Translations under genes and position numbers: made by a program | The notes under the pieces: model-generated | The model's input: only the letters and a program-made list of their open reading frames with translations | The model's database searches: none | What the model was told of the DNA's origin: nothing | Part shown: piece by piece, positions 1,458 through 35,433 of the stretch | Numbering within the stretch: the first letter of the stretch is position 1 | How the letters are laid out: every line of letters begins with the position of its first letter | Origin: Rickettsia typhi | GTDB lineage: Bacteria; Pseudomonadota; Alphaproteobacteria; Rickettsiales; UBA1997 | NCBI GenBank assembly: GCA_945874115.1 | Contig: CAMCFD010000001.1 | Span: 1 to 51,051 of the forward strand | DNA length: 51,051 bases | Reading direction: 5' to 3'

Positions 1458-1673
1458 TTTGTAATAAAATTTTTTAGTTGATTATAGTGAATTTAGACAA
1501 AAATTGCAACAAATAAAGTGTCGCAAAAACAGTGTATAAAATTCTCTCAATTTGCAAGTTTATGTTCGATAACAAACCTAGAGCGCCAAGCCCTGTCAAA
1601 ATTGCTTGATTAATTGCTTTATAATTGTTATTTTTTAATTATAAGAAATATTACATTAAAAATTATCGCTAAA

Positions 1674-2339
1674 ATGAGCAAAGAAGTTCTTTATAAAAAC
1701 ATAAGAAATCGTTGGAATGCCTCAGAGGTGAGCGTTAAGGGCGTTTTGGGTGGCTATGAAAATCTTCACGAAGCAGATTTAAAATCGTCGATAATGACAT
1801 TAGATTGGCTAAAAGAAACTGGGCAAATTAACGGTGGACAAGCTCTTGATTGTTGCGCCGGCATTGGTCGCGTCACCCAAAATGCTCTGCAATATTATTT
1901 TGACGAAATTGATTTATTTGACCAAGAAAAAAATTTTACTGATTATTGCGAAGAATTTTTTGCACAAAATGATAAAATCGATGAAATTCTATGCTGTTCT
2001 TTGCAGGAATATGAGTTTATAAAAAAATACGATTTAATCTGGGTTCAGTGGGGATTCGAGAATCTTGAAGATGAAGATTTGACGCAATTTTTGTTAAAAT
2101 GCAAAGATTCTCTAAAAGAAGGTGGCGTGATTATTGCGAAAGAAAATTTTACAAGTCTTGAAGATTTTTATTTGGGCGAGAACTATAAAATAAGGTCGCA
2201 ACAGCTTATCGCAGATTTTTTTGAGAACTGTGGTTTTGAAATTTTAGTTCAAGAATCGCTTGAAGATGAGTGGCCGCAAGAATTATTTCGAATTATTACT
2301 TTTGTCGCAAAACCAAAGGCGTACGAAGTCTTTTTATAA
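1674..2339 (+). CDS. Class I SAM methyltransferase of the eukaryotic protein N-terminal Xaa-Pro-Lys methyltransferase (NTM1/NTMT1, DUF858) type
   Basis: 'GVLGGY', 'ALDCCAGIGRVT', 'YDLIWVQWGFENLEDEDLTQFLLKCKDSLKEGGVIIAKEN' run colinear with my recollection of human NTMT1 (GMLGGY / ALDCGAGIGRIT / YDVIWIQW..HLTD..FL.RCK.SL.P.G.IVIKDN). I prefer the ATG at 1674; the track ORF begins at a TTG at 1614. Confidence 0.7.
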   Translation: MSKEVLYKNIRNRWNASEVSVKGVLGGYENLHEADLKSSIMTLDWLKETGQINGGQALDCCAGIGRVTQNALQYYFDEIDLFDQEKNFTDYCEEFFAQNDKIDEILCCSLQEYEFIKKYDLIWVQWGFENLEDEDLTQFLLKCKDSLKEGGVIIAKENFTSLEDFYLGENYKIRSQQLIADFFENCGFEILVQESLEDEWPQELFRIITFVAKPKAYEVFL

Positions 2340-6008: not shown

Positions 6009-6608
6009 TTACATCTTATTTTCTTGTCCCATGAGCATTCGCATAATATTTTCTTTGTGGCGAATGATGATTAGCGCGGTTAAAAAAGTGCAGAGAACCA
6101 CTTGACTTGTGGGTGATTCATAATGACACGATAACAATATCGAAGAAAATATTGCCAGCATCGACGCGATGGCCGAAATTCGAAACATTAAAAATGACAT
6201 GATCCAAAATACGATTACTAAGAATCCAACAGATGGGTCAAGCGCGAAAAGCACGGCGATTGCGGTTGCGACACCTTTTCCGCCTTTAAAATCGAGATAT
6301 ATTGGATATACGTGGCCAATCACGGCGATGAAAGAAACTAGGGCCAAAAATAGGTGTAAATATTTTATGTCATAAAACATGAAACGTGCAAAAATCACCA
6401 TTAACATGCCTTTTAGTGCGTCGAGCAAAAAAGTTAGAATTCCTAATTTTTTGCCGCCAACTCTCATAACATTTGTCGCGCCGATATTTCCTGAGCCTTC
6501 GCTTCTAACGTCTTTTCCTAGATATTTTTTTGTCAAAATCAAGCCAAATGGAATTGACGCAACAAAATATGTTGCAGCCAAAAAGATCAGCTGGTAAAAA
6601 TAGGTCAT
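6009..6608 (-). CDS. plsY: Glycerol-3-phosphate acyltransferase PlsY
   Basis: 199-aa polytopic membrane ORF with 'GSGNIGATNV' and 'FKGGKGVAT' PlsY motifs. It overlaps sspB by 4 nt (ATGA). Confidence 0.9.
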   Translation of the reverse strand: MTYFYQLIFLAATYFVASIPFGLILTKKYLGKDVRSEGSGNIGATNVMRVGGKKLGILTFLLDALKGMLMVIFARFMFYDIKYLHLFLALVSFIAVIGHVYPIYLDFKGGKGVATAIAVLFALDPSVGFLVIVFWIMSFLMFRISAIASMLAIFSSILLSCHYESPTSQVVLCTFLTALIIIRHKENIMRMLMGQENKM

Positions 6609-7123
6609 TCTTTAATGTCGTTGTTTTTATTCTTTCTGAAAGCATCAAGAGACACCACTTTCGCCGATAAGTCAACATTTGCTTTAACTTTTTTCTTAGA
6701 TTCGTTTTTATTGGCGTGTTTCGAGTCAAAACTTTCTTCATCACTTGGTGAATTTTCGTCATAACTGACGCTAAATTTCAAGCCAAAATTCATCGACGGA
6801 TCAGCAAACGAAGTGATCGCGCGATACGGCACAACCAATTTTTCATAGCGACCGTTAAAGCTCAGCGAAATTTTGAACATATCGTGATCAACGACAAGTC
6901 CTTTAAATTGATATTGTACGACTATTGTCATTTCTTCATCATATCTTTCTTTCAGAGTTTTTGGCACTGAAACCCCGGGAAAATTAGTTAAAAACGTCAT
7001 TATAAAATAATGTTTTCCAGGTAATCCATTTTTTTCAACCTTTTTCAAAGTCTCATAAATAACAGAGCGCATAGAATTTTCGATGATTTCATCATATCCT
7101 ATCAAATCTTGAATTTCTTGCAT
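6605..7123 (-). CDS. sspB: ClpXP adaptor SspB, alphaproteobacterial type
   Basis: 172 aa. 'YDEIIENSMRSVIYETL', 'LPGKHYFIMTF', 'EEMTIVVQYQF', 'LVVPYRAITSFADPS' match my recollection of Caulobacter SspB-alpha. An acidic/Ser linker precedes a C-terminal 'VVSLDAFRK' segment resembling a ClpX-binding (XB) tail. Confidence 0.7.
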   Translation of the reverse strand: MQEIQDLIGYDEIIENSMRSVIYETLKKVEKNGLPGKHYFIMTFLTNFPGVSVPKTLKERYDEEMTIVVQYQFKGLVVDHDMFKISLSFNGRYEKLVVPYRAITSFADPSMNFGLKFSVSYDENSPSDEESFDSKHANKNESKKKVKANVDLSAKVVSLDAFRKNKNNDIKE

Positions 7124-7177: not shown

Positions 7178-7544
7178 CCAAACTTAGTAAAATAAAGCAA
7201 ATTAAGCGTCGGTTTTTCTGTTGAAAGGAAAACCGACAAACCCCGACAAAATCACTTATGCTAAGCAGCTACTGCCACTTTAGCAAACTCGAAATTGTCA
7301 TTAGCAAAATTTTCGTTTGCGTTTATTGTTTTTGAACGGGTATCCGTAGAGCTTGCGCTCCTAAGACCGGCAGTATCTCAACCGAGTAAAATCAACCTTT
7401 TTATTATGCATGTCGAAGCTATGTCACCCCCATAAATCAGCGCCAATAGCGCCTTTTAAAATGGTGGAGGTGTCGGGTACCGCCCCCGAGTCCATGTCCA
7501 TCTATTTTAAGTTAAGTTTATCACCATAGCACCATTTCTGATGC
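7178..7544 (-). ncRNA. ssrA: tmRNA (ssrA), circularly permuted two-piece form. The acceptor piece ends in CCA at 7462. The coding piece starts at 7431. The tag ORF is 7261..7320.
   Basis: On the minus strand the T-arm and 3' acceptor strand read 'UCGGG-GGCGGUA-CCCGA-CACCUCC-A-CCA' (ending at 7462). A 30-nt spacer follows, then 'GGGGGUGACAUAGCUUCGAC' (7431 downward), which pairs with CACCUCC and includes the G3:U pair. The resume frame GCA AAC GAA AAT TTT GCT AAT GAC AAT TTC GAG TTT GCT AAA GTG GCA GTA GCT GCT TAG encodes ANENFANDNFEFAKVAVAA. The 3' segment 'UAUUUUACUAAGUUU' (7180..7194) can pair with 'AAACUUAACUUAAAAUA' of the acceptor piece. The outer ends are approximate, +/-20 nt. Confidence 0.88.
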
Positions 7545-7550
7545 ATATAT

Positions 7551-7579
7551 AATATAACAATTCCTAATTGATTTTTCAA
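7551..7579 (-). promoter_or_regulatory. Sigma-70-type promoter candidate for ssrA (TTGAAA-17 nt-TATATT)
   Basis: On the minus strand the -35 TTGAAA is at 7574..7579 and the -10 TATATT at 7551..7556, with a 17-nt spacer. This sits just upstream of the acceptor piece. Confidence 0.5.
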
Positions 7580-7824
7580 GGGTTTTGCGAAATTTTATTG
7601 AATTTCATCGATTTTTCTTTAAAATGTAGCAATTTCGGACAAATTTTTATATTTTTTTGAGAAAAATTAATTTTATTGCAGAATTTATTGGATTAATAAA
7701 AATTTAATTTTTATTAAAAAAATGATCTTATGCTTAGGAATGTTTTGTCATTTTTGCGCGAGAAAGAATCTATTTTTTTAAAGATTAGATGGCTTTCAGC
7801 CTACGCAAAAAAGACACGAGGTTG

Positions 7825-17179: not shown

Positions 17180-17617
17180 TTATTTCTTGCAAAATTTGCA
17201 TAAAATTCCGTCAAGTGATAGTTTTCCACCGCCATAAATTGCAATTGTCGCAAGTAAAAACAGCCAATAAAAATGTTCAGGATTTGCAAAAACGGCAAAC
17301 TGAATAACTAGAGTCATGATAATTAAAGGAAGAGCGGCAAGTCTTGAAAGCAGGCCTAAAATTAAGGCGCCACCACATAAAATTTCGAAAATCATCGCGC
17401 TGTATGTTGCAAATATTGGTGATATATGAGGAACTTGATATTCATATTCGAACAACAAAATTGACGAATCGACGTTTGAAAATTTAACTAATCCGCTTTT
17501 TAAAAAGACAAGGCCAATAAAAACGCGTATTGCAAGCAATAAAATCGGAGATAAATAAATTTGTAAAAAATCAGAATATTTCGCGTAAATATTTTTTGTT
17601 GTTTCGCATAATTTCAT
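17180..17617 (-). CDS. DoxX family membrane protein (last gene of the MNIO operon)
   Basis: 145 aa with four predicted TM helices. 'RVFIGLVFLKSGLVKF' is typical of DoxX. It follows the DUF2063 gene after 11 nt. Confidence 0.7.
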   Translation of the reverse strand: MKLCETTKNIYAKYSDFLQIYLSPILLLAIRVFIGLVFLKSGLVKFSNVDSSILLFEYEYQVPHISPIFATYSAMIFEILCGGALILGLLSRLAALPLIIMTLVIQFAVFANPEHFYWLFLLATIAIYGGGKLSLDGILCKFCKK

Positions 17618-17628
17618 ATAAATTTATT

Positions 17629-18342
17629 TTAGTTAGTGTGAAAATCAATTAAAACGCCATTCCCAATATATTTTTGCAAAGAATTTTGTATATTACAATT
17701 AAATTTATCGTAAATTTGAAACAGCGTCAAGCCTTGTTTCGCGCCGCTTAAAAACTGAAATTCTTTTTTGGTAATTTTTTCAACTTTTATCTCGTTATTT
17801 TGTCTAAAAATTACGAAAAAATAACTATTTTTTCCAGGTTTTTCGCGATTTTTTTTGCCAAATAAATTATATTTTGACTCAATAAAAAAACATGTACAGC
17901 TTAGCTTGAATTTTAAATCGAATAATTTTTCTTGAGGAATGTTTTGCAAAGCTTCAACGTCGAAGATTATTTCATTTTCTTTGAGATAAGATTCTTGTTC
18001 AAGCCAATTAACAAAAGACAAGTCGCGCAAAAAATCTCCGTGAACTTTTTCTAAAAATTCGGGAAAATCAGCGCCATAATCGTCTAAATTTCCACTTTGC
18101 GAGCGATGATTTTTTATAAATTCGTGCGCAATTTCATTGAACTTTTTTTCGCCCAAAAATTCGTACACATCTTTAAAAGTAATTCTTAAGGCATTAGTCA
18201 AAACGCAAAAAAGATTATTTTGATAAATGCTAATAAGGCTTTGTTTCGAAGCTTTTGCGGGCTTTATTACATCAAAAATTTTGTTGTTGTTTTTATAAAC
18301 GCCGTCGATAAAATCACTTTGCAAATCTTTAAGATTTTTCAT
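17629..18342 (-). CDS. DUF2063-type partner protein of the MNIO enzyme (BufC-like)
   Basis: 237 aa. The N-terminal 'LQSDFIDGVY' and the gene's position immediately after, and overlapping by 14 nt, a DUF692 gene match the conserved DUF692-DUF2063 pair. Confidence 0.65.
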   Translation of the reverse strand: MKNLKDLQSDFIDGVYKNNNKIFDVIKPAKASKQSLISIYQNNLFCVLTNALRITFKDVYEFLGEKKFNEIAHEFIKNHRSQSGNLDDYGADFPEFLEKVHGDFLRDLSFVNWLEQESYLKENEIIFDVEALQNIPQEKLFDLKFKLSCTCFFIESKYNLFGKKNREKPGKNSYFFVIFRQNNEIKVEKITKKEFQFLSGAKQGLTLFQIYDKFNCNIQNSLQKYIGNGVLIDFHTN

Positions 18343-19141
18343 AAACCTCGCGAACTTTTTTCATTTCTTCATATAAAACTTCGAATTCAGGAATTTCTTC
18401 GTCCCATTCAACTAAAGTCGGAATTGCTAATTTTTTCGCAGAGAATTTTTTGTATAACTCAAAAACTTCGTCGCAAATTTGCGTGCTGTGCGTGTCGATT
18501 CTAATTTCTTGTCCATCAAAATTGCTGACGCTGTGCCCGGCTAGATGAATTTCTTTGACGCTGTTAATGTCAATGTTTTCTAAGTATTTAAAAGCATCGA
18601 AACCGAAGTTTTTTGCGCTCACAAAAATATTATTTATGTCTAGTAAAATCGCGCAATTTGTTTGTTTTGCGACTTCGTTTATAAAATCAACTTCGCTAAA
18701 ATCGGCGTCTTCGAACTCGAGATAGGCTGACGGATTTTCGATCAAAATTTGACGTCCGAAAAAATTTTGAGCAGACTTCACGTTGTCGCAAAAAATCTGC
18801 AAAGCTTCTTTGGTGTATGGAATTGGTAATAAATCGTTGGAAACGCCTTTATCAGAAGAGCTCCACGACAGATGATCTGAAAGTAAAATCGGCTTAAATT
18901 GGTCGCAAAGATTTTTAATGTTGGCCAAATGTTTTTTGTCAAGACCGACGGCTGATCCAAGAGACAAGCCAACGCAGTGAAAGCTTAACGGGTAAAGTTG
19001 CGATATTTTGTCTAGAAATTCGATTGAAGCACCGCCATTTGCGATAAAATTTTCGCTGTGGATTTCAAAAAATCCAACATCTGGTTTTTGCGTTAAAACA
19101 GTGTTGTGATGAGGGTGTCTTAAACCTAGACCGAAAAGCAT
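18329..19141 (-). CDS. DUF692 / multinuclear non-heme iron-dependent oxidase (MNIO, MbnB/BufB-like)
   Basis: 'MLFGLGLRHPHH', 'FFEIHSENF', 'LSFHCVGLSLGS', 'LSDHLSW', 'NDLLPIPYT', 'ILIENPSAY', 'LLDINNIFVSAKN', 'EIHLAGH', 'IDTHS' and 'TLVEWDEEIP' fit the DUF692 TIM-barrel family. I prefer the ATG at 19141; the track ORF extends to a TTG at 19186. Confidence 0.85.
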   Translation of the reverse strand: MLFGLGLRHPHHNTVLTQKPDVGFFEIHSENFIANGGASIEFLDKISQLYPLSFHCVGLSLGSAVGLDKKHLANIKNLCDQFKPILLSDHLSWSSSDKGVSNDLLPIPYTKEALQIFCDNVKSAQNFFGRQILIENPSAYLEFEDADFSEVDFINEVAKQTNCAILLDINNIFVSAKNFGFDAFKYLENIDINSVKEIHLAGHSVSNFDGQEIRIDTHSTQICDEVFELYKKFSAKKLAIPTLVEWDEEIPEFEVLYEEMKKVREVYEKS

Positions 19142-19209
19142 TTGAGTGATATTTATGAAGCAAAAGAACAAGGGTAATTTTTGCAATCACCCTTGTTTAA
19201 AATCAAAAA

Positions 19210-19458
19210 CTATTTTGCACTTTTGCAAGAATGTTTAGCTTTAGAAGAGCAAGAAGATTTTCCTTCTTTTTTCTTTGAAGCATCTTCTCTTTTTGCTGAA
19301 TTAGTTGAAGCAGCTTGTTTAGAAGAGCAAGAAGCTTTTTCTGTTTTTTTAGAAGCGCATTTGTGCTTTTCAGTCATTTTGCAAGCTGACAAGCCAGAGG
19401 CCAAAACTACGCCAGCAATTGCTAGTTTCGCAGATTCTAAAAATAATTTTCTAGACAT
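19210..19458 (-). CDS. Small secreted Lys/Ser/Cys-repeat peptide (putative lipoprotein; candidate second RiPP precursor)
   Basis: 82 aa with signal peptide 'MSRKLFLESAKLAIAGVVLASGLSAC' (lipobox LSAC). The tail carries four more Cys in K-x-x-C-[AS]-SK contexts. The internal DNA repeat 'tttagaagagcaagaag' occurs twice (about 19241 and 19318). The ORF is co-oriented with the MNIO gene and ends 68 nt before its ATG (23 nt if the TTG at 19186 is used). Confidence 0.5.
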   Translation of the reverse strand: MSRKLFLESAKLAIAGVVLASGLSACKMTEKHKCASKKTEKASCSSKQAASTNSAKREDASKKKEGKSSCSSKAKHSCKSAK

Positions 19459-19561
19459 AGATATAGATTGTTTAAGTTAATAATTTAAAAAGATCAAAGA
19501 AAGAGGTTCTTAAAAACCACTGCCTAAGAAAGATGTTATACTTGCTGTTTTCTATTTTCAA

Positions 19562-19819
19562 CTAAACTTTTGGTTTTTTTGAGCCGTTGACTAATCTTTC
19601 GCAAATTCCCTCTGGAAGAAGAACCCATTCAGATTTGTCGCTATCAATTGAAGCCGCTCCAGCGCAAGAGTGCCCACCTTTTTTAGCTGAACTACAGTCG
19701 TTTTTCCCAGCTTTTACTACGCCATAACATTTTTCCATTTTTTCATCGGCGAAAGACGCGCTTGATGAAGCTAGAGCTATTCCGGTTAGTGCGAGAGTTA
19801 AAAATTTTTGTTTTTTCAT
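19562..19819 (-). CDS. DUF2282-type signal-peptide-bearing 4-Cys peptide (bufferin/BufA1-like RiPP precursor)
   Basis: 85 aa with signal peptide 'MKKQKFLTLALTGIALASSSASFA'. It then has 'EKCYGVVKAGKNDCSS..GGHSCAGAAS....EWVLLPEGICERL', the four-Cys DUF2282 pattern. Confidence 0.8.
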   Translation of the reverse strand: MKKQKFLTLALTGIALASSSASFADEKMEKCYGVVKAGKNDCSSAKKGGHSCAGAASIDSDKSEWVLLPEGICERLVNGSKKPKV

Positions 19820-24663: not shown

Positions 24664-25689
24664 ATGAGAATTTTAAACGCAATTCATAATCAGTCAATTG
24701 GCGGCGTTGAGCAAATGTTTCGCAATTATACAATCGCGCTAAAAAATTCTGGCCATGAAGTTGCTTTATTAATTTCGAAGAACAATTATGATTATACAAA
24801 TGTAAAAAGAATTTTCAAACTAAATAATTTCTCGCAAATTTCTGATTTTTTTCATTTATTGTGGATTTTATTGATTTTCCGCCCAAATTTGGTGATTTGC
24901 CATTCAAATCGGATAATGAAGTGGATGAAAATTTTCGCGAAATTTACGCCGATAAAGTCGGTTGCGATCAATCACGGAATCTCTTTTAAAAGCTCGCTTA
25001 ATTGCGATTATATCATTAACATTAATTCTCAAATTCACGAAATGGTTATTGGCGCGGGTTTCAATCGCGAAAATTCTTTTGTGATTGAAAACGTGATCGA
25101 AAATAATTATCCATATCGCGCGCGTCAATTAAACGAAAAAACGCCGGTGATCGCTATGTATGGAAGAATTGAGCCGCGCAAGGGTTTCGATATTTTAATC
25201 AAGGCTGGCGAAATTTTGGCCAAAAAAAATTATGATTTCAGCCTTAAAATTGGTGGTTTTGAAGTTGAGGGAAGTTATGGTTTGCAGAATGTAAAAAATC
25301 TTGCCAAGGATCGCGGCGTTTATGAAAAATGTGATTTTGTCGGAGTAGTTTATGATAAGGCAGATTTTTTCAAAGATGTCGATATTTTTGTTATTCCGTC
25401 TCGTGAAGAGCCTTTTGGCCTTGTGATTCTCGAATCTTTCGCTAATTCGGTTTTAGCGATTTCATCAAATACAATTGGTGGAAAAATGTTAATAAATCAT
25501 GGTGAAGATGGAATTTTATTTGAAAATGAAAATTACGAAAATTTGGCGCAAAAAATAATTTATGCACTTGAAAATAAAGAAAATTATTGTAATTATACCA
25601 AGAAAGCTTACGAAAAATTAGAGAAAAATTTCAATTTTGATGTTTTTTCGGCAAAATTTGGTGATTTTTTGACTAAAACGATGAAATAA
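24664..25689 (+). CDS. Glycosyltransferase family 4 (GT-B, RfaG-like)
   Basis: 341 aa with 'MRILNAIHNQSIGGVEQ', 'YGRIEPRKGFDILI' and 'PSREEPFGLVILESFA' (EX7E motif). Confidence 0.8.
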   Translation: MRILNAIHNQSIGGVEQMFRNYTIALKNSGHEVALLISKNNYDYTNVKRIFKLNNFSQISDFFHLLWILLIFRPNLVICHSNRIMKWMKIFAKFTPIKSVAINHGISFKSSLNCDYIININSQIHEMVIGAGFNRENSFVIENVIENNYPYRARQLNEKTPVIAMYGRIEPRKGFDILIKAGEILAKKNYDFSLKIGGFEVEGSYGLQNVKNLAKDRGVYEKCDFVGVVYDKADFFKDVDIFVIPSREEPFGLVILESFANSVLAISSNTIGGKMLINHGEDGILFENENYENLAQKIIYALENKENYCNYTKKAYEKLEKNFNFDVFSAKFGDFLTKTMK

Positions 25690-25700
25690 TTTGATTTTTC

Positions 25701-25729
25701 TTGTTAAAAAGTTAGAATTTTTTTATAAC
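25701..25729 (+). promoter_or_regulatory. Sigma-70-type promoter candidate (TTGTTA-17 nt-TATAAC) for the lipoprotein array
   Basis: The -35 is at 25701..25706 and the -10 at 25724..25729, about 20 nt upstream of the first lipoprotein ATG. Confidence 0.35.
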
Positions 25730-25749: not shown

Positions 25750-26085
25750 ATGACAAATTGTATAAAATATATTCTTGCAGTAACTTTATTTTTTACACTA
25801 GCGGGATGTGAAATTATTTTTGAGAAATCGCCGCGAGGCTGGCCAGCTTTTGAACCAAGACCTCTTGTTGGGGTGAAGAATTTTCCGCCAACTGACACCG
25901 ATTATGGCAAGGGTTTTCGCGGTGGCTGTGGTTCGGCGTGGGACGCGGTTACGAAGGGATTGACTTCTGATGTTAGTCCGAAAGCTATTGATACGCAAAA
26001 AATGGTAAAAAGCCCTGATTACGCCTTGGGTTGGTCGGATGGTTTTGAGCAATGCACTTATATTGTTGACTGGGATGTCGTATAA
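25750..26085 (+). CDS. Small lipoprotein, paralogue 1 of 5 (G-aromatic-x-x-G-C family)
   Basis: 111 aa with lipobox 'LAGC' and motifs 'DYGKGFRGGCGSAWD' and 'DYALGWSDGFEQC'. Confidence 0.7.
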   Translation: MTNCIKYILAVTLFFTLAGCEIIFEKSPRGWPAFEPRPLVGVKNFPPTDTDYGKGFRGGCGSAWDAVTKGLTSDVSPKAIDTQKMVKSPDYALGWSDGFEQCTYIVDWDVV

Positions 26086-26428
26086 AATCCTCAAAAAACA
26101 CAGCTTCATTGTTTTGTTTTTTGTTGTGCTGACATCAATCACTTCATCTTGTCGATTGGTGGGGTTTTATGAGCCAGTTACACTCGATTTAGATATACCG
26201 GACGGTCCAGCTGAATATAAGGCGGGATATCGCGCTGGTTGTCGCTCTGGCCTTGGCGCCGGAAGGGCCTTTGCTGGAGGATTTGTTTATGATCCTGATC
26301 ATGGTACGGGTGTTTATCAGCACGATTCTAACTTTGTTACTGGCTGGAGCCATGGTTGGTTTACCTGCGTAATTCATGCCTCAACTTTCAGTACATTGAA
26401 CGCAATGAAACATGGGCCATTAGAATAA
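26075..26428 (+). CDS. Small lipoprotein, paralogue 2 of 5
   Basis: The ATG at 26075 overlaps the stop codon of paralogue 1 by 11 nt. Signal peptide 'MSYKILKKHSFIVLFFVVLTSITSSC'; motifs 'EYKAGYRAGCRSGLG' and 'NFVTGWSHGWFTC'. Confidence 0.7.
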   Translation: MSYKILKKHSFIVLFFVVLTSITSSCRLVGFYEPVTLDLDIPDGPAEYKAGYRAGCRSGLGAGRAFAGGFVYDPDHGTGVYQHDSNFVTGWSHGWFTCVIHASTFSTLNAMKHGPLE

Positions 26429-26430
26429 TT

Positions 26431-26793
26431 ATGAAATATTTAAAAATAATAAGCCTAATCTCGATATTATCGCTGACTTTTTTTGTCGGCTCTTGTAGGC
26501 AGATAGGCAAAAAAATGCCAAATACTCCACTTAGTGATTTTAAAGATACGATGGCGACCGCAACTCCTGATTTTAGAAAGGGTTGGTACGATGGTTGTGA
26601 AGTCGGGCTTTCGACCGGAGCTAATACTTTTTATAAAACTCTCTATAAAAGTAATCAAATTGATGGTTATAAAATGACCGAGTCTCCTGAATATAAAGCG
26701 GCTTGGGGAACGTCCTTTTGGTATTGCTATCGCTATACTTTTATTAAACAAAAAAGTCCGTTTTGGAAGTCATTCTTTGAAGGATATAAATAA
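26431..26793 (+). CDS. Small lipoprotein, paralogue 3 of 5
   Basis: The ATG lies 2 nt after the preceding stop codon. Signal/lipobox 'ILSLTFFVGSC'; motifs 'DFRKGWYDGCEVGLS' and 'EYKAAWGTSFWYC'. Confidence 0.7.
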   Translation: MKYLKIISLISILSLTFFVGSCRQIGKKMPNTPLSDFKDTMATATPDFRKGWYDGCEVGLSTGANTFYKTLYKSNQIDGYKMTESPEYKAAWGTSFWYCYRYTFIKQKSPFWKSFFEGYK

Positions 26794-26794
26794 T

Positions 26795-27313
26795 ATGGTG
26801 AGAATAATTTTAATAACATTGCTGCTTTTTATCCCGTGTTGTCGGTGGTTTGAAAATGCCTCGACCCCATATACAATTGGCGCGGGATTTAAAGTTCCAC
26901 CGGGAACACCAGCTTTTCAGCAAGGTTATCGCGATGGCTGTTCGCAGATTTTTTATTCTCGTGGTAACAGTTTTTATCGTTGGCGCCATAAATATAAATA
27001 TAATCCGAAAATGAACGGCAATTCAGAATATCGTTTTGGCTATAAAAGGGGAGGTTCTTTTTGTTTCAACTTCATAACTCCGGGCGTGACTGCGCCAGAT
27101 CGCTATATATTTCCTAATAAAGACCCAATTTTGGCGATGGACTACAACAAAACCGGTTTCTTTGAGGGTCCGCTCGACGCTTTTATACCACAAGCAGAGT
27201 GGGGAGGTCTTGACGGTGTTTATAAGGTTTGGTCGGGAGGCGGCGGAGATTCTGTGTTTGGCGCAAATCCTTTGTGGGCTGGCGGTTCTAGTGGTCAATT
27301 TTTTGGACAATAA
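26795..27313 (+). CDS. Small secreted/lipoprotein, paralogue 4 of 5 (Gly-rich C-terminal extension)
   Basis: The ATG lies 1 nt after the preceding stop codon. Signal 'MVRIILITLLLFIPCC' is an atypical lipobox. Motifs 'AFQQGYRDGCSQ' and 'EYRFGYKRGGSFC'. Confidence 0.65.
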   Translation: MVRIILITLLLFIPCCRWFENASTPYTIGAGFKVPPGTPAFQQGYRDGCSQIFYSRGNSFYRWRHKYKYNPKMNGNSEYRFGYKRGGSFCFNFITPGVTAPDRYIFPNKDPILAMDYNKTGFFEGPLDAFIPQAEWGGLDGVYKVWSGGGGDSVFGANPLWAGGSSGQFFGQ

Positions 27314-27326
27314 AATTATTTGATAT

Positions 27327-27854
27327 ATGAATTTTGTAAAGTTCACGATTCTGATGTTTTTTGTGGCTTCATGCTCAACGCCAAATTGGTATAAGCCGCA
27401 TGGATATAAATTGTTTAGCCTTATGCCAAAAGGAGGAACTCCCGGCTATAATCTTGGTTGGGTTCATGGCTGTGAATCGGGAGCGGGAACGCAATTTGGT
27501 GGCGCAGTTTATCAAACTTTTTACACTTGGAATCGTGATCCTGACATTTCAAGTTCGCGGCCCGATATTGAGAAAATTCGAAAACGCTACGGAAAAAAAG
27601 AATTAAAAGATGTTAACTGGAGCGATAGTGCTGAAATAAAACGCAACTTTTCCGACTATAATCTAGTTTTTTGGGACGCGCATTATTTCTGTCGTCAAAC
27701 TGTTTTGGGAACTCTTCAGCTGGGTGATATGGATCCGCCTCTTCCGGGTGAAACACGCTATAATCCATCAGCTCATCACTTGGGAAGTGTTTATAAATTG
27801 AATGGAAAAAATGACCCGAGGTTGGGATCTCAAAGAAGTGGAGGTTTTTGGTAG
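27327..27854 (+). CDS. Small lipoprotein, paralogue 5 of 5
   Basis: Lipobox 'FVASC'; motifs 'GYNLGWVHGCESGAG' and 'YNLVFWDAHYFC'. Confidence 0.7.
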   Translation: MNFVKFTILMFFVASCSTPNWYKPHGYKLFSLMPKGGTPGYNLGWVHGCESGAGTQFGGAVYQTFYTWNRDPDISSSRPDIEKIRKRYGKKELKDVNWSDSAEIKRNFSDYNLVFWDAHYFCRQTVLGTLQLGDMDPPLPGETRYNPSAHHLGSVYKLNGKNDPRLGSQRSGGFW

Positions 27855-31339: not shown

Positions 31340-33829
31340 ATGAATTTATCTATGTTTAGAATCTTGTTATTACTCTTGCTGATTTCCGCTTGTGGTGGAG
31401 GTGGCGGAGGTGGAGGTAGGGGGCCTCTCACCACCCCGACTCCTGTCATAAATGATCCAGAGCCAGAGCCGGAGCCGGAGCCTGACACAGCTTGGATCGA
31501 TAGCGTTAGTGTTGCTGAGGCCAATGTATACAGAACCGCAGAATATAACGCGCAGTGGGGCCTTGAGGCAATTGGGGCTGCGAAAGCCTACGCGTTGCTG
31601 GCAAAAAATGACAAAGCTGTTGGGGGTCAGGGCGTAAAAATTGCCATTGCTGACAGTGGGGCGCGTGTTGCTCACAACGAAATTGCAGGAAATATTATCA
31701 CCGCCGACAGCTATAATTATTTTTATGAAAACGCCAATGTTGACGATGCTCACGGACACGGAACCCACGTCGCTTCAACGGCCGCTGGCGTTAAGAATGG
31801 AGGTGGCATGCACGGTGTCGCTTATAATTCACAAATTATAGTTTCTGATTTATTTAATGACACCACTGATCTTGGAGACATTTCTGGTGCGCTCGACGGC
31901 TCGTCTGACAAGGGTGCAAAAGTCGTAAACGCCAGCGTTTCATATGGAACATACACTGCTTATAATGGCGACACCATCTCGGCGGGCACTGACACCGCGA
32001 TCATCAACGCCATAACCGATGCAAGAGTAAATGACGTTTTATTTGTGTTCGCCGCCGGAAACGACGCTGATAACGCGGGAAACGGTCAAACCGGTTTTCA
32101 AGATCCTAATTATTTAATTCATCAAAAGCCGTCAAAGCCAGCTTTGTTCGCCAATAATCCAACTTTAGAAGGTTATGTTTTGGCGGTTGGCGCCGTTGAT
32201 GAAAATGGCGACATCGCCGATTTCAGCAATAATTGCACGGTTACTAAAGATTATTGTTTAGTTGCTCCGGGCGTTGACATTTATGCGGCATTTCGCGGAA
32301 CTAATTCAACTTATCAAGCCCTTGACGGCACGTCAATGGCCGCTCCACACGTTAGTGGCGCGGCTGCGGTTCTTCGCGGGGCTTGGCCACATTTAACCGC
32401 GCCACAAACCGCGCAAATTTTATTGTTGACCGCCGACGACTTGGGTGTTGCGGGTGTTGACGATGTTTATGGCCACGGCATGTTGAATTTATATGAAGCT
32501 GTTCAAGGCTATGGTTCTGAAGCTATTGTTTTTGGCGCTTCGGTTTCAAGTAAAGGTTACGATTTATCCTCAACTTCATTTTTATCTGATCCAATTTTTG
32601 GCGATGCGTTAGTTTCAAAAGTTGCGCCAGCGTTAAAAGATGCAGTTTTCTTTGACGATTTTGGTCGTGATTATAAAGCTTCTCTAGGAAATAAAATATC
32701 TTACAAAACCAATGCTCGCAATACTTCATTTAATGTCAGCCAAATTTTGCTAAATGAATATGAAACAAAAAATATTCCATTTTCATTTTCATCAAGCGAC
32801 GGAAAATCGAACACGAAAATTAATTTTAAATTAAAATCTTATAGTAAAAATAAATTAAAATTTCAAACCACCGACAATTCAACAATTGGCCAAGAATTAG
32901 AAAATGATCGCGGCTTTTCTTTTGTCGAAACACTCAGCAAAAAATCATCTTTCGGATTTGCTTTTAACGTCGATGAAATCACAAATTCAAGTTCGAATAT
33001 TTTAAAAGAAATGCAATTCTTGTCTTTAAATTCTCTAAATTCAAATCCATTTCAAAATTTCGTGAATCAAGGATCAGGATCGGTTTCGTTCAATAATTCG
33101 CAAAAAAATTTCAACCAACTTTTTATAAATCATAAAATTCTTGATGAAAAAATAAAAATCGGATTTTCTCATCAAGCTTCATATTTAAGAAATTCCTCCG
33201 ACATTAAAAACGGCAGTTTGCAAAACCAAATTAATGATTTTAATTTGGGATTCAAGGCTAACAAAAATTCCGATATTTCTGTTTCGTTTGGAAAATTAGA
33301 CGAGTTTGATAATAATTTATTAAACTCGAAAGCCCTTGGTGCGTTTGAGTCGGCACAAGATGTTAAAACTTCTTATATGAAAATTTCTATGGTGCAAAAA
33401 TTGTTTAGCGACATTTCTTTAATTGCCAATTTTTCGCAAGGCTCAACAAAAATTAATGGCAACGAATTTGGAATTTTTCGCGATTTTTCAAACATAAAAA
33501 GTCGCGCTTTCGCGGTCGGCTTCGTAAACAAAAATATTTTTGGTGGAAATTTAGGATTAATTTATAACGAACCGATGCGCGTTTATGAAGGAAAAGTTTC
33601 AATTGACGCTCCGATCGCTCGCGACTTGGCCGGAAACGTTACGCGATATCAAGATAAAATTTCGCTAAAACCAGTTGGAAAAGAGCAAAATCTCGAATTA
33701 TTTTTCGCAAAAAGCCTTGGTAATTTTTCGCGAGTTTCTCTAAACTTGATCGCGATAAAAGATGCTGGAAATATCGTCAGAAGAAACAAAGATTATTTTG
33801 CGATAATGAATTACGGACTGGCGTTTTAA
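31340..33829 (+). CDS. Lipidated subtilisin-like (S8) serine protease autotransporter (NalP/SphB1-like architecture)
   Basis: 829 aa with lipobox 'LLLISAC'. The catalytic triad contexts are 'IAIADSG' (Asp), 'HGHGTHVAS' (His) and 'GTSMAAPHVSGAAAVL' (Ser). The Asn/Ser-rich C-terminal ~300 aa show alternating beta-strand patterns and a terminal 'YGLAF', consistent with an autotransporter barrel. Confidence 0.8.
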   Translation: MNLSMFRILLLLLLISACGGGGGGGGRGPLTTPTPVINDPEPEPEPEPDTAWIDSVSVAEANVYRTAEYNAQWGLEAIGAAKAYALLAKNDKAVGGQGVKIAIADSGARVAHNEIAGNIITADSYNYFYENANVDDAHGHGTHVASTAAGVKNGGGMHGVAYNSQIIVSDLFNDTTDLGDISGALDGSSDKGAKVVNASVSYGTYTAYNGDTISAGTDTAIINAITDARVNDVLFVFAAGNDADNAGNGQTGFQDPNYLIHQKPSKPALFANNPTLEGYVLAVGAVDENGDIADFSNNCTVTKDYCLVAPGVDIYAAFRGTNSTYQALDGTSMAAPHVSGAAAVLRGAWPHLTAPQTAQILLLTADDLGVAGVDDVYGHGMLNLYEAVQGYGSEAIVFGASVSSKGYDLSSTSFLSDPIFGDALVSKVAPALKDAVFFDDFGRDYKASLGNKISYKTNARNTSFNVSQILLNEYETKNIPFSFSSSDGKSNTKINFKLKSYSKNKLKFQTTDNSTIGQELENDRGFSFVETLSKKSSFGFAFNVDEITNSSSNILKEMQFLSLNSLNSNPFQNFVNQGSGSVSFNNSQKNFNQLFINHKILDEKIKIGFSHQASYLRNSSDIKNGSLQNQINDFNLGFKANKNSDISVSFGKLDEFDNNLLNSKALGAFESAQDVKTSYMKISMVQKLFSDISLIANFSQGSTKINGNEFGIFRDFSNIKSRAFAVGFVNKNIFGGNLGLIYNEPMRVYEGKVSIDAPIARDLAGNVTRYQDKISLKPVGKEQNLELFFAKSLGNFSRVSLNLIAIKDAGNIVRRNKDYFAIMNYGLAF
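31394..31483 (+). repeat. In-frame low-complexity repeats: (GGN)8 Gly tract and (GAGCCN)4 Pro-Glu repeat
   Basis: GGT GGA GGT GGC GGA GGT GGA GGT at 31394..31417 and CCA GAG CCA GAG CCG GAG CCG GAG CCT at 31457..31483. Both lie immediately after the lipobox Cys. Confidence 0.85.
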
Positions 33830-33841
33830 GTGATATGATTT

Positions 33842-34288
33842 TTATCGAGACAGTTCAGCAACACTAAGCCAGCGGCTTCGAGCGCGAAGTCTTCTGGCGT
33901 CAACGCGACCTCTAATTGTGCGTCCGCGGTCTCTAACCTCAACTTTGTCGCGCCATTTTCTATTTTCTTCAGGAATTTCCGGCGTCGTTCTGGCTAATTT
34001 TCTTGCTGCTATTTTTGTTTTTGCTGAAGCAATTACGATTTGACGATTTTTATCATGAAGCCTTTTGTGGTGCATGATAATGTTGTCCGTGAACCATCTG
34101 CGTCTTCTATTCATCATGCGTCGTCTTTGCGCGCGCGTAAGTCTTTTGCCTTTAGTTTTGCGAATTACGCTGAAAAACGAATGCATAATTTCATGACCAA
34201 TCAGGTGATGAACCAGCGGAGAGTTCAAAAGCCCAGAAGAGGCGAGGTTTATAGCGTTAAAATTAGCGAGACCTATGAATTCAATCAT
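33842..34288 (-). CDS. Hypothetical small, extremely Arg/Lys-rich protein with an N-terminal HExxH motif
   Basis: 148-aa ORF containing 'HHLIGHEIMH'. The remainder is dominated by R/K ('RAQRRRMMNRRRRW', 'RGRVDARRLRARSR'). It starts 2 nt after the stop codon of the upstream OMP gene (coupled). The DNA is GC-richer than its surroundings. Confidence 0.4.
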   Translation of the reverse strand: MIEFIGLANFNAINLASSGLLNSPLVHHLIGHEIMHSFFSVIRKTKGKRLTRAQRRRMMNRRRRWFTDNIIMHHKRLHDKNRQIVIASAKTKIAARKLARTTPEIPEENRKWRDKVEVRDRGRTIRGRVDARRLRARSRWLSVAELSR

Positions 34289-34290
34289 TT

Positions 34291-35433
34291 TTAAAATTCG
34301 TATAAATAACTTATCATCAAGCCCAAGAGAGCGGCTCTGTGACCATCTTCTCTAACACTTGCGCGGTTTATGTCGACCGCAATATTATTGGCAAATTTAT
34401 ATCCGATCGAAAGTTGCATCAAACGATCGTGACTTTTCGAAGTTAATGCGCTTGGATAATTATTGTCTAAATTGCGTAAAATGCTTGATATGCTTGCGCT
34501 CCAGCCGCTATATTTTCCGATAATTGAGGTCGTGATATATTCTCCATCGCGATTTTTTCTTCCAGTAAAATTGCTAAGTTTAACAATTTCAAACACAGGA
34601 ATAATGGAAGTTAATCTGTTAATTTTGTGCAAATATTCAAGATTTGCTGTGTATGCAATTTCGCGCGAACCTTGAGAATCTTGCTTATCAACGCCAAGGC
34701 TACGATATCCGAGATTGTAATACAAATTTTCTACGCCAAGAAATTTTTGGCCTTCCATGGTGATGCTGTAAGAAGAAAGTGTTCCCGTATTTCCAGAAAG
34801 TCCGTCATTGCGGCTTTGTTTGTCGCGGTCATTAAACGCACTTCTGCTTAAATCTGTAGCGTCAGTAAAAAAGCTGTTGATCGTAATTTCGCTATCTTCC
34901 AAAAGCGCGCCAAGACTGAACCCAAGCTTCTCGCGAAGCTCATAATCTTCGGTAAAATCGGTGACAAAAAGTCCGATTCTTTTATTTCTTCTATATAAAG
35001 TTGCGAAAGTCGGGTTATATTTCCCGACTGAAAATTTCATATCATCATTTTCGAAATTCAGCTTTAATTCTTCGACAATTAGGCCTGTGTCATCTTGATT
35101 TATGCCGCGATTAATCCCCTCTTTATTGCCAAGAATAGAGCGTGAGCGCTCGGGGCTGTCATATTGTCTGTGGCGAATTGGCAGAATTCTCCAGCCCGTT
35201 TTTACTGACCAGCGTTCGTTAAAACTTAAAGTAAAATCTGGCTCAATATTAATTAAGGCGCTGTTTGATTCAAGCCCTTGTTTTTTGCTTTCAAGAACGT
35301 GATCGTTTCGTGATTCGAACAAAATTTGTCCGCTAACGTTTGGATATTGCTCCGCCGAGTTCGCGTAAGAAATTTCTGCTATGCAAAATAAAGCCGATAA
35401 AACAACAAATTTAATTTTTTTCATATGTTTCAA
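34291..35433 (-). CDS. Outer-membrane beta-barrel protein (porin-like)
   Basis: 380 aa with signal peptide 'KKIKFVVLSALFCIAEISYA', alternating-hydrophobicity strands and the C-terminal OMP signature 'ISYLYEF' (terminal Phe). Confidence 0.65.
   Translation of the reverse strand: MKHMKKIKFVVLSALFCIAEISYANSAEQYPNVSGQILFESRNDHVLESKKQGLESNSALINIEPDFTLSFNERWSVKTGWRILPIRHRQYDSPERSRSILGNKEGINRGINQDDTGLIVEELKLNFENDDMKFSVGKYNPTFATLYRRNKRIGLFVTDFTEDYELREKLGFSLGALLEDSEITINSFFTDATDLSRSAFNDRDKQSRNDGLSGNTGTLSSYSITMEGQKFLGVENLYYNLGYRSLGVDKQDSQGSREIAYTANLEYLHKINRLTSIIPVFEIVKLSNFTGRKNRDGEYITTSIIGKYSGWSASISSILRNLDNNYPSALTSKSHDRLMQLSIGYKFANNIAVDINRASVREDGHRAALLGLMISYLYEF

Follow-up and report, generated by a model that had tools for sequence, protein, structure and literature searches.

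A 51,051-nucleotide stretch of DNA deposited as Rickettsia typhi (Rickettsiales, UBA1997; assembly GCA_945874115.1, contig CAMCFD010000001.1), the whole of which is referred to here as the window, contains five consecutive open reading frames (ORFs) on the + strand (25750-27854) that encode small paralogous lipoproteins, designated O1-O5 in gene order. Our results point to an ancient, vertically inherited operon, present in about 100 uncultured freshwater bacteria that resemble Rickettsiales and encoding five distinct lipoprotein classes. Its products most likely assemble into a single hetero-oligomer, located on the periplasmic side of the (outer) membrane and having a constitutive role in the cell envelope; they are probably neither interchangeable nor antigenically varying surface proteins. 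We have high confidence in the paralogy of the five proteins, their lipoprotein signals, the conservation of their number, order and spacing, the prediction that they are helical, the presence of an invariant Cys pair and the lack of known relatives. The complex, its outer-membrane location, its envelope role and a disulfide within each subunit are what we infer, and we place the probability of a stoichiometric hetero-oligomeric lipoprotein complex with an envelope role at about 0.55.

According to the proposed mechanism, each protein would be exported, anchored to lipid through its N-terminal Cys and folded into a compact helical domain of ~75 residues, in which a helix carrying GWxDGCExG and a helix carrying YxxAWxxxxxYC are probably stapled by a single disulfide; O4 and O5 would add flexible Gly/aromatic tails with conserved aromatic ends, which are disordered in prediction. 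Translational coupling would most likely yield the five products in fixed proportions. We favour a complex because of the fixed number and order of the genes, their overlap, the class-specific conservation and differing isoelectric points (pI) of their products, and the occurrence of natural fusions. Tight overlapping gene spacing is usual for subunits made in a fixed ratio, and domain fusions are a classic indicator of physical interaction. The five genes are as follows.

25750-26085, + strand: O1, lipoprotein paralogue 1, 111 amino acids; signal ends LAGC (lipid Cys20); motif 1 YGKGFRGGC (C60); second Cys C102.
26075-26428, + strand: O2, lipoprotein paralogue 2, 117 amino acids from the ATG at 26075, overlapping O1 by 11 nt; lipobox TSSC (Cys26); motif 1 YKAGYRAGC (C56); second Cys C98.
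26431-26793, + strand: O3, lipoprotein paralogue 3, 120 amino acids, starting 2 nt past the O2 stop; lipobox VGSC (Cys22); motif 1 FRKGWYDGC (C56); second Cys C99.
26795-27313, + strand: O4, lipoprotein paralogue 4, 172 amino acids, starting 1 nt past the O3 stop; signal ends IPCC (lipid Cys16 by orthologue alignment); motif 1 FQQGYRDGC (C49); second Cys C90.
27327-27854, + strand: O5, lipoprotein paralogue 5, 175 amino acids, starting 13 nt past the O4 stop; lipobox VASC (Cys16); motif 1 YNLGWVHGC (C49); second Cys C122; invariant C-terminal Trp175.

A preliminary description of the window, made from its letters, had reported these five ORFs, the gaps between them (-11, +2, +1 and +13 nt) and hydrophobic leaders ending in Cys, all of which are present in the window sequence. 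Both of the motifs that it described are real. The first, [FY]xxG[FWY]xxGC, matches five times when the 51-kb window is translated in six frames, each time within O1-O5 (starts 25903, 26216, 26572, 26915 and 27447), compared with a chance expectation of 0.025 by shuffling. The second motif of O5 is YNLVFWDAHYFC; it had been placed correctly, whereas MAFFT applied to the five sequences alone misplaced it. The single conserved Cys pair proposed in that description is borne out in every orthogroup, in which the lipid Cys and exactly two further Cys columns are 100% conserved; the two members of the pair are separated by 41-42 residues in O1-O4 and by 73 in O5.

Across the classes (58-82 orthologues per class) the leaders are hydrophobic and mostly end L-[STAN]-[SGA]-C, the IPCC lipobox of the window O4 being unusual, and weak matches to the lipobox profile LPAM_1 were found. 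By the sequence criterion for bacterial lipoproteins, i.e. a signal peptide followed by a lipobox with an invariant Cys, all of O1-O5 are predicted to be lipoproteins. The mature proteins are rich in aromatic residues (15-19%), and each class keeps its own invariant residues and surface features. The C-terminal extensions do differ by class, as had been described; these tails and termini are, however, conserved class by class, with O1 ending DWDV[VLP], O2 PL[EQ], O3 FGGY[RK], O4 gqFFG and O5 G.W. The Gly- and aromatic-rich tail of the window O4 ends NPLWAGGSSGQFFGQ, and a tail motif, nPlWaggs.gqffG, is kept across the O4 orthogroup. The median pI also differs between classes, being 5.7 for O1, 6.6 for O2, 8.9 for O3, 8.5 for O4 and 9.3 for O5.

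Pairwise identity among the five window proteins is only 20-27%; the profile-profile matches among the five orthogroups nevertheless reveal true paralogy. With hhalign, O1-O4 detect one another at 94-98% probability (E 1e-7 to 1e-12), with O2 matching O3 and O4 at 97-98%, and O5 matches O2, O3 and O4 at 91-96%; O1-O5 is the only pair without direct profile-profile detection. The signal peptide and its Cys are likewise kept in all five orthogroups, so the description of the array as five paralogous lipoproteins stands. The further suggestion that the two motif helices arose by internal duplication is weakly and inconsistently supported: when N-terminal halves were aligned with C-terminal halves by hhalign, the best comparison, which spanned 19 columns, reached 85% probability (E 6.5e-6), with the majority falling below 50%.

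The conservation of the array in the clade of the window was assessed from a profile search with O5 orthologues, which identified relatives in 94 species-representative genomes; 80 loci were fetched, and every ORF was assigned to its best paralogue. The order O1-O2-O3-O4-O5 is present in 61 of 85 related loci, and 15 of the 85 have the arrangements O2-O5, O3-O5 or O4-O5, mostly cut by contig ends. The named relatives are metagenome-assembled genomes (MAGs) labelled Rickettsiales, Alphaproteobacteria, Proteobacteria or Pseudomonadota bacterium, plus evident mislabels, with many coming from lakes. Median identities of orthologues to the window proteins are 58% for O5, the most conserved member, 52% for O1, 46% for O3, 44% for O2 and 43% for O4; the corresponding values for neighbouring genes are 53% (YgfZ), 57% (GT4), 58% (HemW) and 69% (TauE). 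Orthologue conservation is similar to that of neighbouring housekeeping genes, or about 5-15 points below it. Since these identities lie near those of housekeeping neighbours, and the order of the orthogroups is conserved, the divergence between paralogues is old and not ongoing.

These observations bear directly on the reading advanced in the preliminary description, namely that the array is the product of local amplification and fast divergence of surface lipoproteins that act where the cell meets its host or phages. Such a role would involve antigenic or receptor variation. The low identity of the paralogues and their lipoprotein nature are as that reading would have them, and a host interface does exist in the family UBA1997, the members of which are reported to be freshwater extracellular Rickettsiales attached to cryptophyte algae (preprint, bioRxiv 10.1101/2023.01.31.526412). 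Against this, the copy number is fixed at five, the order is conserved, the clade orthologues are 43-58% identical, like YgfZ, GT4 and HemW, and class-specific residues and termini are maintained; neither the copy-number variation of contingency families nor any phage, plasmid or defence relative was found in our searches. The orthology data thus contradict the interface reading, which we regard as largely refuted and highly improbable. The comparison of copy number among relatives that had been proposed as a check gave 99 five-gene arrays (see below).

The pentad is not confined to the clade of the window. When 1.84 billion representative proteins were searched exhaustively by HMMER, the O3 profile matched 237 clusters at 50% identity (E<=1e-3). 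Among the best 150, 148 were newly returned, of which ~30 are clear or probable members of the window-clade orthogroups, mostly O3, and ~119 are more distant small lipoproteins with the core PPEYxxGWxDGCESG ... FYKxFYxFKQD ... YYxAWKDAxxYCRxY. Examination of 71 distant relatives revealed the same three Cys as their invariant Cys columns. We define the pentad family (GWxDGC ... YCR domain) by a lipobox Cys; the pattern P-x-G-x-P-x-[FY]-x-x-G-[WYF]-x-[DEHQ]-G-C; a second helix that contains [WY] together with an invariant Cys, ~35-45 residues on (73 in O5); and a tight array of five paralogues. All five window ORFs belong to the family as so defined.

The genomic contexts of distant members were taken from individually fetched loci and 80 metagenomic loci, giving 88 newly fetched loci in all. 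Given a contig of sufficient length, the family genes number five in tandem: exactly five are present in 42 of the loci and six in one, with smaller counts occurring mostly on short contigs; overall, there are 99 five-gene arrays among 173 loci. In these 99 arrays, ~80-98% of the junctions overlap or abut, with median gaps of -1 to +2 nt, a consistency of spacing that is in accord with the translational coupling proposed for the window genes. Best-hit analysis indicates that positional orthology persists below 40% identity. Among 27 distant arrays, an O1-like protein occupies position 1 in 18, an O2-like protein position 2 in 12 and an O3-like protein position 3 in 21; the protein at position 4 is O3- or O4-like, and O5-like members occur solely at position 5. 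Arrays of five genes with roughly the same order of paralogues are hence found in distant lineages, among other uncultured Alphaproteobacteria and Rickettsiales MAGs, from which it follows that the pentad predates the divergence of these lineages.

Natural two-domain fusions were observed in two combinations, one comprising P0267 and P0389-P0392, which corresponds to positions 4 and 5 of locus L086, and the other P0263 and P0259. In the fusion of positions 4 and 5, a linker replaces the signal peptide of the second gene; fusion loci include L088 (55-741) and L091 (8001-8693).

A different explanation of the conserved cluster is that it encodes five independent periplasmic or outer-membrane lipoproteins, binding, e.g., five different ligands or clients, which are grouped for co-regulation only and do not form a complex. 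That each class has its own conserved residues is compatible with independent functions, as are the separability of O1, the occurrence of O5 alone in nine loci and the finding of just one family member at a few metagenomic loci, e.g. L118, L148 and L156, even with several kb of flanking sequence. Number, order and overlapping spacing are, however, strictly kept across deep divergence and there are two kinds of domain fusion, a combination more typical of obligate partners than of co-regulated paralogues; we therefore consider that an arrangement of five independent proteins is rather unlikely.

Several observations nonetheless weigh against an obligate five-subunit complex. In nine of the 85 window-clade loci (L013, L045, L054, L056, L065, L068, L081, L082 and L084) O5 is the only member present, O1-O4 being missing from the adjoining sequence, with an upstream flank that ranges from 1.4 to 6 kb among these loci; in the O5 tree these solitary members form two clades and two singletons. 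In some O2-O5 arrays O1 is truly missing locally or displaced, and O1, for which 56 distinct orthologues were collected, is the member most often missing or displaced from the array. Asp at position +2 was never seen in the listed sequences of any class, which favours the proposed location, but the +2 rule for localisation may not hold in these bacteria. Finally, gene neighbourhoods differ between lineages, with no consistent functional partner or universal neighbour.

Three of the loci concerned have further features. In L057 and L058 (113-457, - strand) an Alph_Pro_TM-TauE-YgfZ-O1 block is inverted, such that O1 lies on the opposite strand ~4.5 kb from O2-O5. Locus L065 is from 'Rickettsiales bacterium UBA1997', and its O5 is flanked by an ORF of 415 amino acids, which by eye we take to encode an RlmI-like methyltransferase, and by a helix-turn-helix (XRE-like) ORF.

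AlphaFold2 predicts an all-helical structure for O3, with a mean predicted local distance difference test (pLDDT) score of 87.2 for the model built from the orthologue alignment. The signal-peptide helix and short N-terminal helices are followed by helices at 46-63, 66-69, 79-84, 86-108 and 110-119, with C56 in helix 46-63 and C99 in helix 86-108. The O5 model, likewise from an orthologue alignment (mean pLDDT 75), has a helical core (26-132) and a low-confidence tail (135-175). The predictions place the motif 1 Cys in one helix and the second Cys in another, so that a disulfide joining this invariant pair is plausible; alternatively, Cys together with neighbouring Asp/His and Glu may form a metal site.

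The preliminary description did not recognise the family, and no match to it was found in Pfam, NCBIfam or the PDB. Foldseek comparisons of the O3 and O5 models with the PDB and BFVD gave no relative (best E 2.1-3.7, TM ~0.2-0.3), with the caveat that the signal peptide and tails had been left in the models, at a cost in sensitivity. A search of PDB sequences with two family profiles by hmmsearch gave nothing below E 0.4. Scans of the five window proteins against Pfam-A 2025 and NCBIfam 20.0 returned nothing but noise at E<=1, and only noise and weak lipobox matches resulted from the Pfam scan of 46 O3 orthologues and from Pfam and NCBIfam scans of 71 distant relatives. A weak Peptidase_M4 match in 6 of the 46 O3 orthologues (E ~0.04) was judged spurious. 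A phage, defence or mobile origin was also considered: there were no matches in PHROGs or PADLOC, none by tblastn of O5 against phage records or of O3 against plasmid records, and no relative in IMG/VR, and such an origin was rejected on these empty searches and the stable chromosomal synteny. A description of the family was not found in literature searches. We regard the pentad as a new protein family with a new operon architecture, for which neither Pfam-A (2025), NCBIfam 20.0 nor the PDB has an entry.

The sequence upstream of O1 in the window includes the following two features.

24664-25689, + strand: GT4-family glycosyltransferase gene (Pfam Glycos_transf_1, E 9.4e-35).
25691-25718, + strand: candidate sigma-70-type promoter, TTGATT-16-TAGAAT, from a consensus scan (9/12), 32 nt upstream of the O1 start codon.

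Synteny in the window clade runs Usp(-), Alph_Pro_TM(-), TauE(-), YgfZ(-), optionally GT61(-) and GT4(+), and then O1-O5, GT61 being adjacent to GT4 and divergently oriented. The two upstream glycosyltransferase genes of the preliminary description are accordingly real, but they are optional: of the 56 loci with O1, 31 carry GT4, and this gene is missing upstream of O1 in 21 clade loci with >=1.5 kb of upstream sequence, in which YgfZ(-) or another gene takes its place, as well as from distant arrays. Where GT4 is present, its median distance to O1 is -4 nt (<=3 nt in 29 of 31 loci). GT4 often, though not always, heads the operon as a sixth gene. The window itself, with a gap of 60 nt containing the promoter-like site, is an exception among its relatives; since the GT4 gene overlaps O1 in most GT4-carrying relatives, transcription there probably starts further upstream. 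The promoter candidate noted previously does exist, but such sites are not enriched in the region over shuffled sequences (9 matches compared with 6.2+/-2.1 expected).

The coupling of GT4 to O1 in 29 of the 31 loci having GT4, together with the adjacent, divergent GT61, would fit a glycan-related module, in which the lipoproteins act with GT4 (and GT61), whether by being glycosylated themselves or by providing a platform in the outer membrane for a surface glycoconjugate. The 21 same-clade loci and the distant arrays without GT4 argue otherwise, as does the 60-nt gap with its promoter-like site in the window, and we regard a glycan-specific role as very improbable.

Neighbours vary by lineage, a MoxR-like ATPase being one of them, and those of the distant arrays comprise ribBA-ribH-nusB-thiL; response regulators; YdbH/YnbE/YdbL, where we take the second to be YnbE from reading by eye of a 63-residue lipoprotein sequence; MurJ; and tad/cpa genes and secretins. 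Envelope genes are frequent among the neighbours of the family as a whole (coupled GT4, GT61, MurJ, YdbH/YnbE/YdbL, tad/cpa genes and secretins).

Some of these contexts raise the possibility that the lipoproteins serve a Tad/Flp (Cpa) pilus or secretin as pilotin-like or docking accessories, helping an adhesive pilus to assemble in the outer membrane or to be anchored there; such a function would fit a surface-attached lifestyle. In L091 (1-6637) the array lies directly downstream of cpaC(secretin)-cpaD-cpaE-cpaF-tadB-tadC; in L086 (1-3367) it is downstream of T2SSE-T2SSF-T2SSF-SelO; and in L089 (1-2247), L090 and L130 it is 2.6 kb from prepilin peptidase and secretin genes. The accessory genes tadD-G usually lie where these arrays sit in tad loci. 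The association is, however, limited to three related lineages, and because these share downstream synteny (RecJ, HAD) it may reflect only one or two independent events; moreover, there are no pilus genes within 25 kb on either side of the window array or near the other ~60 long loci. Nor do the proteins resemble pilins, having no class III signal and an all-helical prediction, and there is no tetratricopeptide repeat (TPR) match of the type expected for TadD. We thus consider a dedicated pilus or secretin function improbable, and treat the pilus link as a weak lead only. Identity with TadD or a PilF-type pilotin was rejected, there being no TPR Pfam matches and pilus-locus adjacency only in L086, L089 and L091.

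The window, which has a G+C content of ~36%, otherwise carries the usual biosynthetic and housekeeping genes, and several further loci merit description. An operon for a ribosomally synthesised and post-translationally modified peptide (RiPP) of the MbnB/DUF692 type occupies 17180-19819 (- strand) and is putatively bufferin-like. Its genes are as follows.

19562-19819, - strand: candidate secreted Cys-containing precursor, 85 amino acids.
19210-19458, - strand: secreted Lys/Ser/Cys-rich ORF, 82 amino acids.
18329-19186, - strand: MbnB/TglH/ChrH (E 2.8e-98).
17629-18342, - strand: DUF2063.
17180-17617, - strand: DoxX.

A permuted (two-piece) alphaproteobacterial transfer-messenger RNA (7207-7583, - strand), with the tag ANENFANDNFEFAKVAVAA, adjoins sspB (6605-7123, - strand). 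The gene at 1614-2339 (+ strand) matches PF05891, an AdoMet-dependent N-terminal proline dimethyltransferase (NTM1-like) family that is mostly eukaryotic (E 9.3e-45). Beyond the array, a subtilase (Peptidase_S8) of 829 amino acids is encoded at 31340-33829 (+ strand), followed at 33842-35433 (- strand) by ORFs of 148 and 380 amino acids without a Pfam match.

If the assignment of O1-O5 to a hetero-oligomeric envelope complex holds, the pentad represents a conserved multi-subunit envelope component in poorly known environmental Rickettsiales, including reported algal epibionts, without a counterpart in model organisms. More tentatively, it is possible, although we think it unlikely, that the pentad is a five-subunit envelope machine with a new fold, which is found only in extracellular Rickettsiales, whether free-living or epibiotic, and in related Alphaproteobacteria, is needed for a surface function (e.g. 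attachment, or pilus or glycan assembly) and was lost in the classical intracellular Rickettsiales. If this were so, the pentad would mark, and might help to determine, the transition from extracellular to intracellular life. The results also correct a tempting interpretation, i.e. that a tandem lipoprotein array signifies a fast-evolving host-interface family. The pentad, with its five genes in fixed order, natural fusions and invariant Cys pair, provides a testable unit for structural work and allows the envelopes of extracellular and intracellular Rickettsiales to be compared, and the new family (~237 clusters at 50% identity) could enter family databases.

Among known systems, those nearest in function are multi-lipoprotein assemblies of the outer membrane and the five-member sets of minor pilins. 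The minor pilins and pseudopilins of type II secretion systems (T2SS) and type IV pili are similar in that ~five small paralogues, encoded by overlapping genes, form one hetero-oligomer, and some distant pentad arrays lie beside tad/cpa or secretin genes. Pilins, however, have a class III signal (G/FTLxE), are cut by prepilin peptidase and have an alpha/beta fold, whereas the pentad proteins have a lipobox Cys and are predicted to be all-helical. The idea that they are pilins, or T2SS or Tad pseudopilins (TadE/F), which arose from the number five and the tad neighbours, was rejected on the lipobox leaders and the all-helical models.

With respect to the fold, the Cys-rich Sel1-like proteins of Helicobacter and the mitochondrial CHCH (twin CX9C) proteins are small helical modules that reside in an oxidising compartment and carry Cys on a pair of adjacent helices. 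The likeness is a structural analogy only: the pentad proteins differ in having a single Cys pair, none has a SEL1 or CHCH Pfam match, and Foldseek gave no relative. Braun's lipoprotein, Lpp, is likewise a small helical outer-membrane lipoprotein, and it ends ...YRK, which the ...GGY[RK] end of O3 resembles; O3, though, has neither a coiled-coil repeat nor an Lpp match in Pfam or NCBIfam. Anchoring of O3 to peptidoglycan through its C terminus, in the manner of Lpp, was rejected, the terminal Lys not being conserved: the O3 C-termini include GGYR, GGYK, KGFR, SGFQ, GGVQ and others, with R, Q, N and I also occurring as the terminal residue.

The Bam accessory lipoproteins (BamB/C/D/E) offer a further parallel. 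Unlike the pentad proteins, they are not mutual paralogues and their genes do not share a compact operon; their folds are known (beta-propeller, TPR and others), and no Bam-like similarity of sequence or fold was found for the pentad in Pfam, NCBIfam or Foldseek searches. The analogy is one of working principle only, in that several small lipoproteins are required together in fixed stoichiometry at the periplasmic face of the outer membrane, as we propose for O1-O5.

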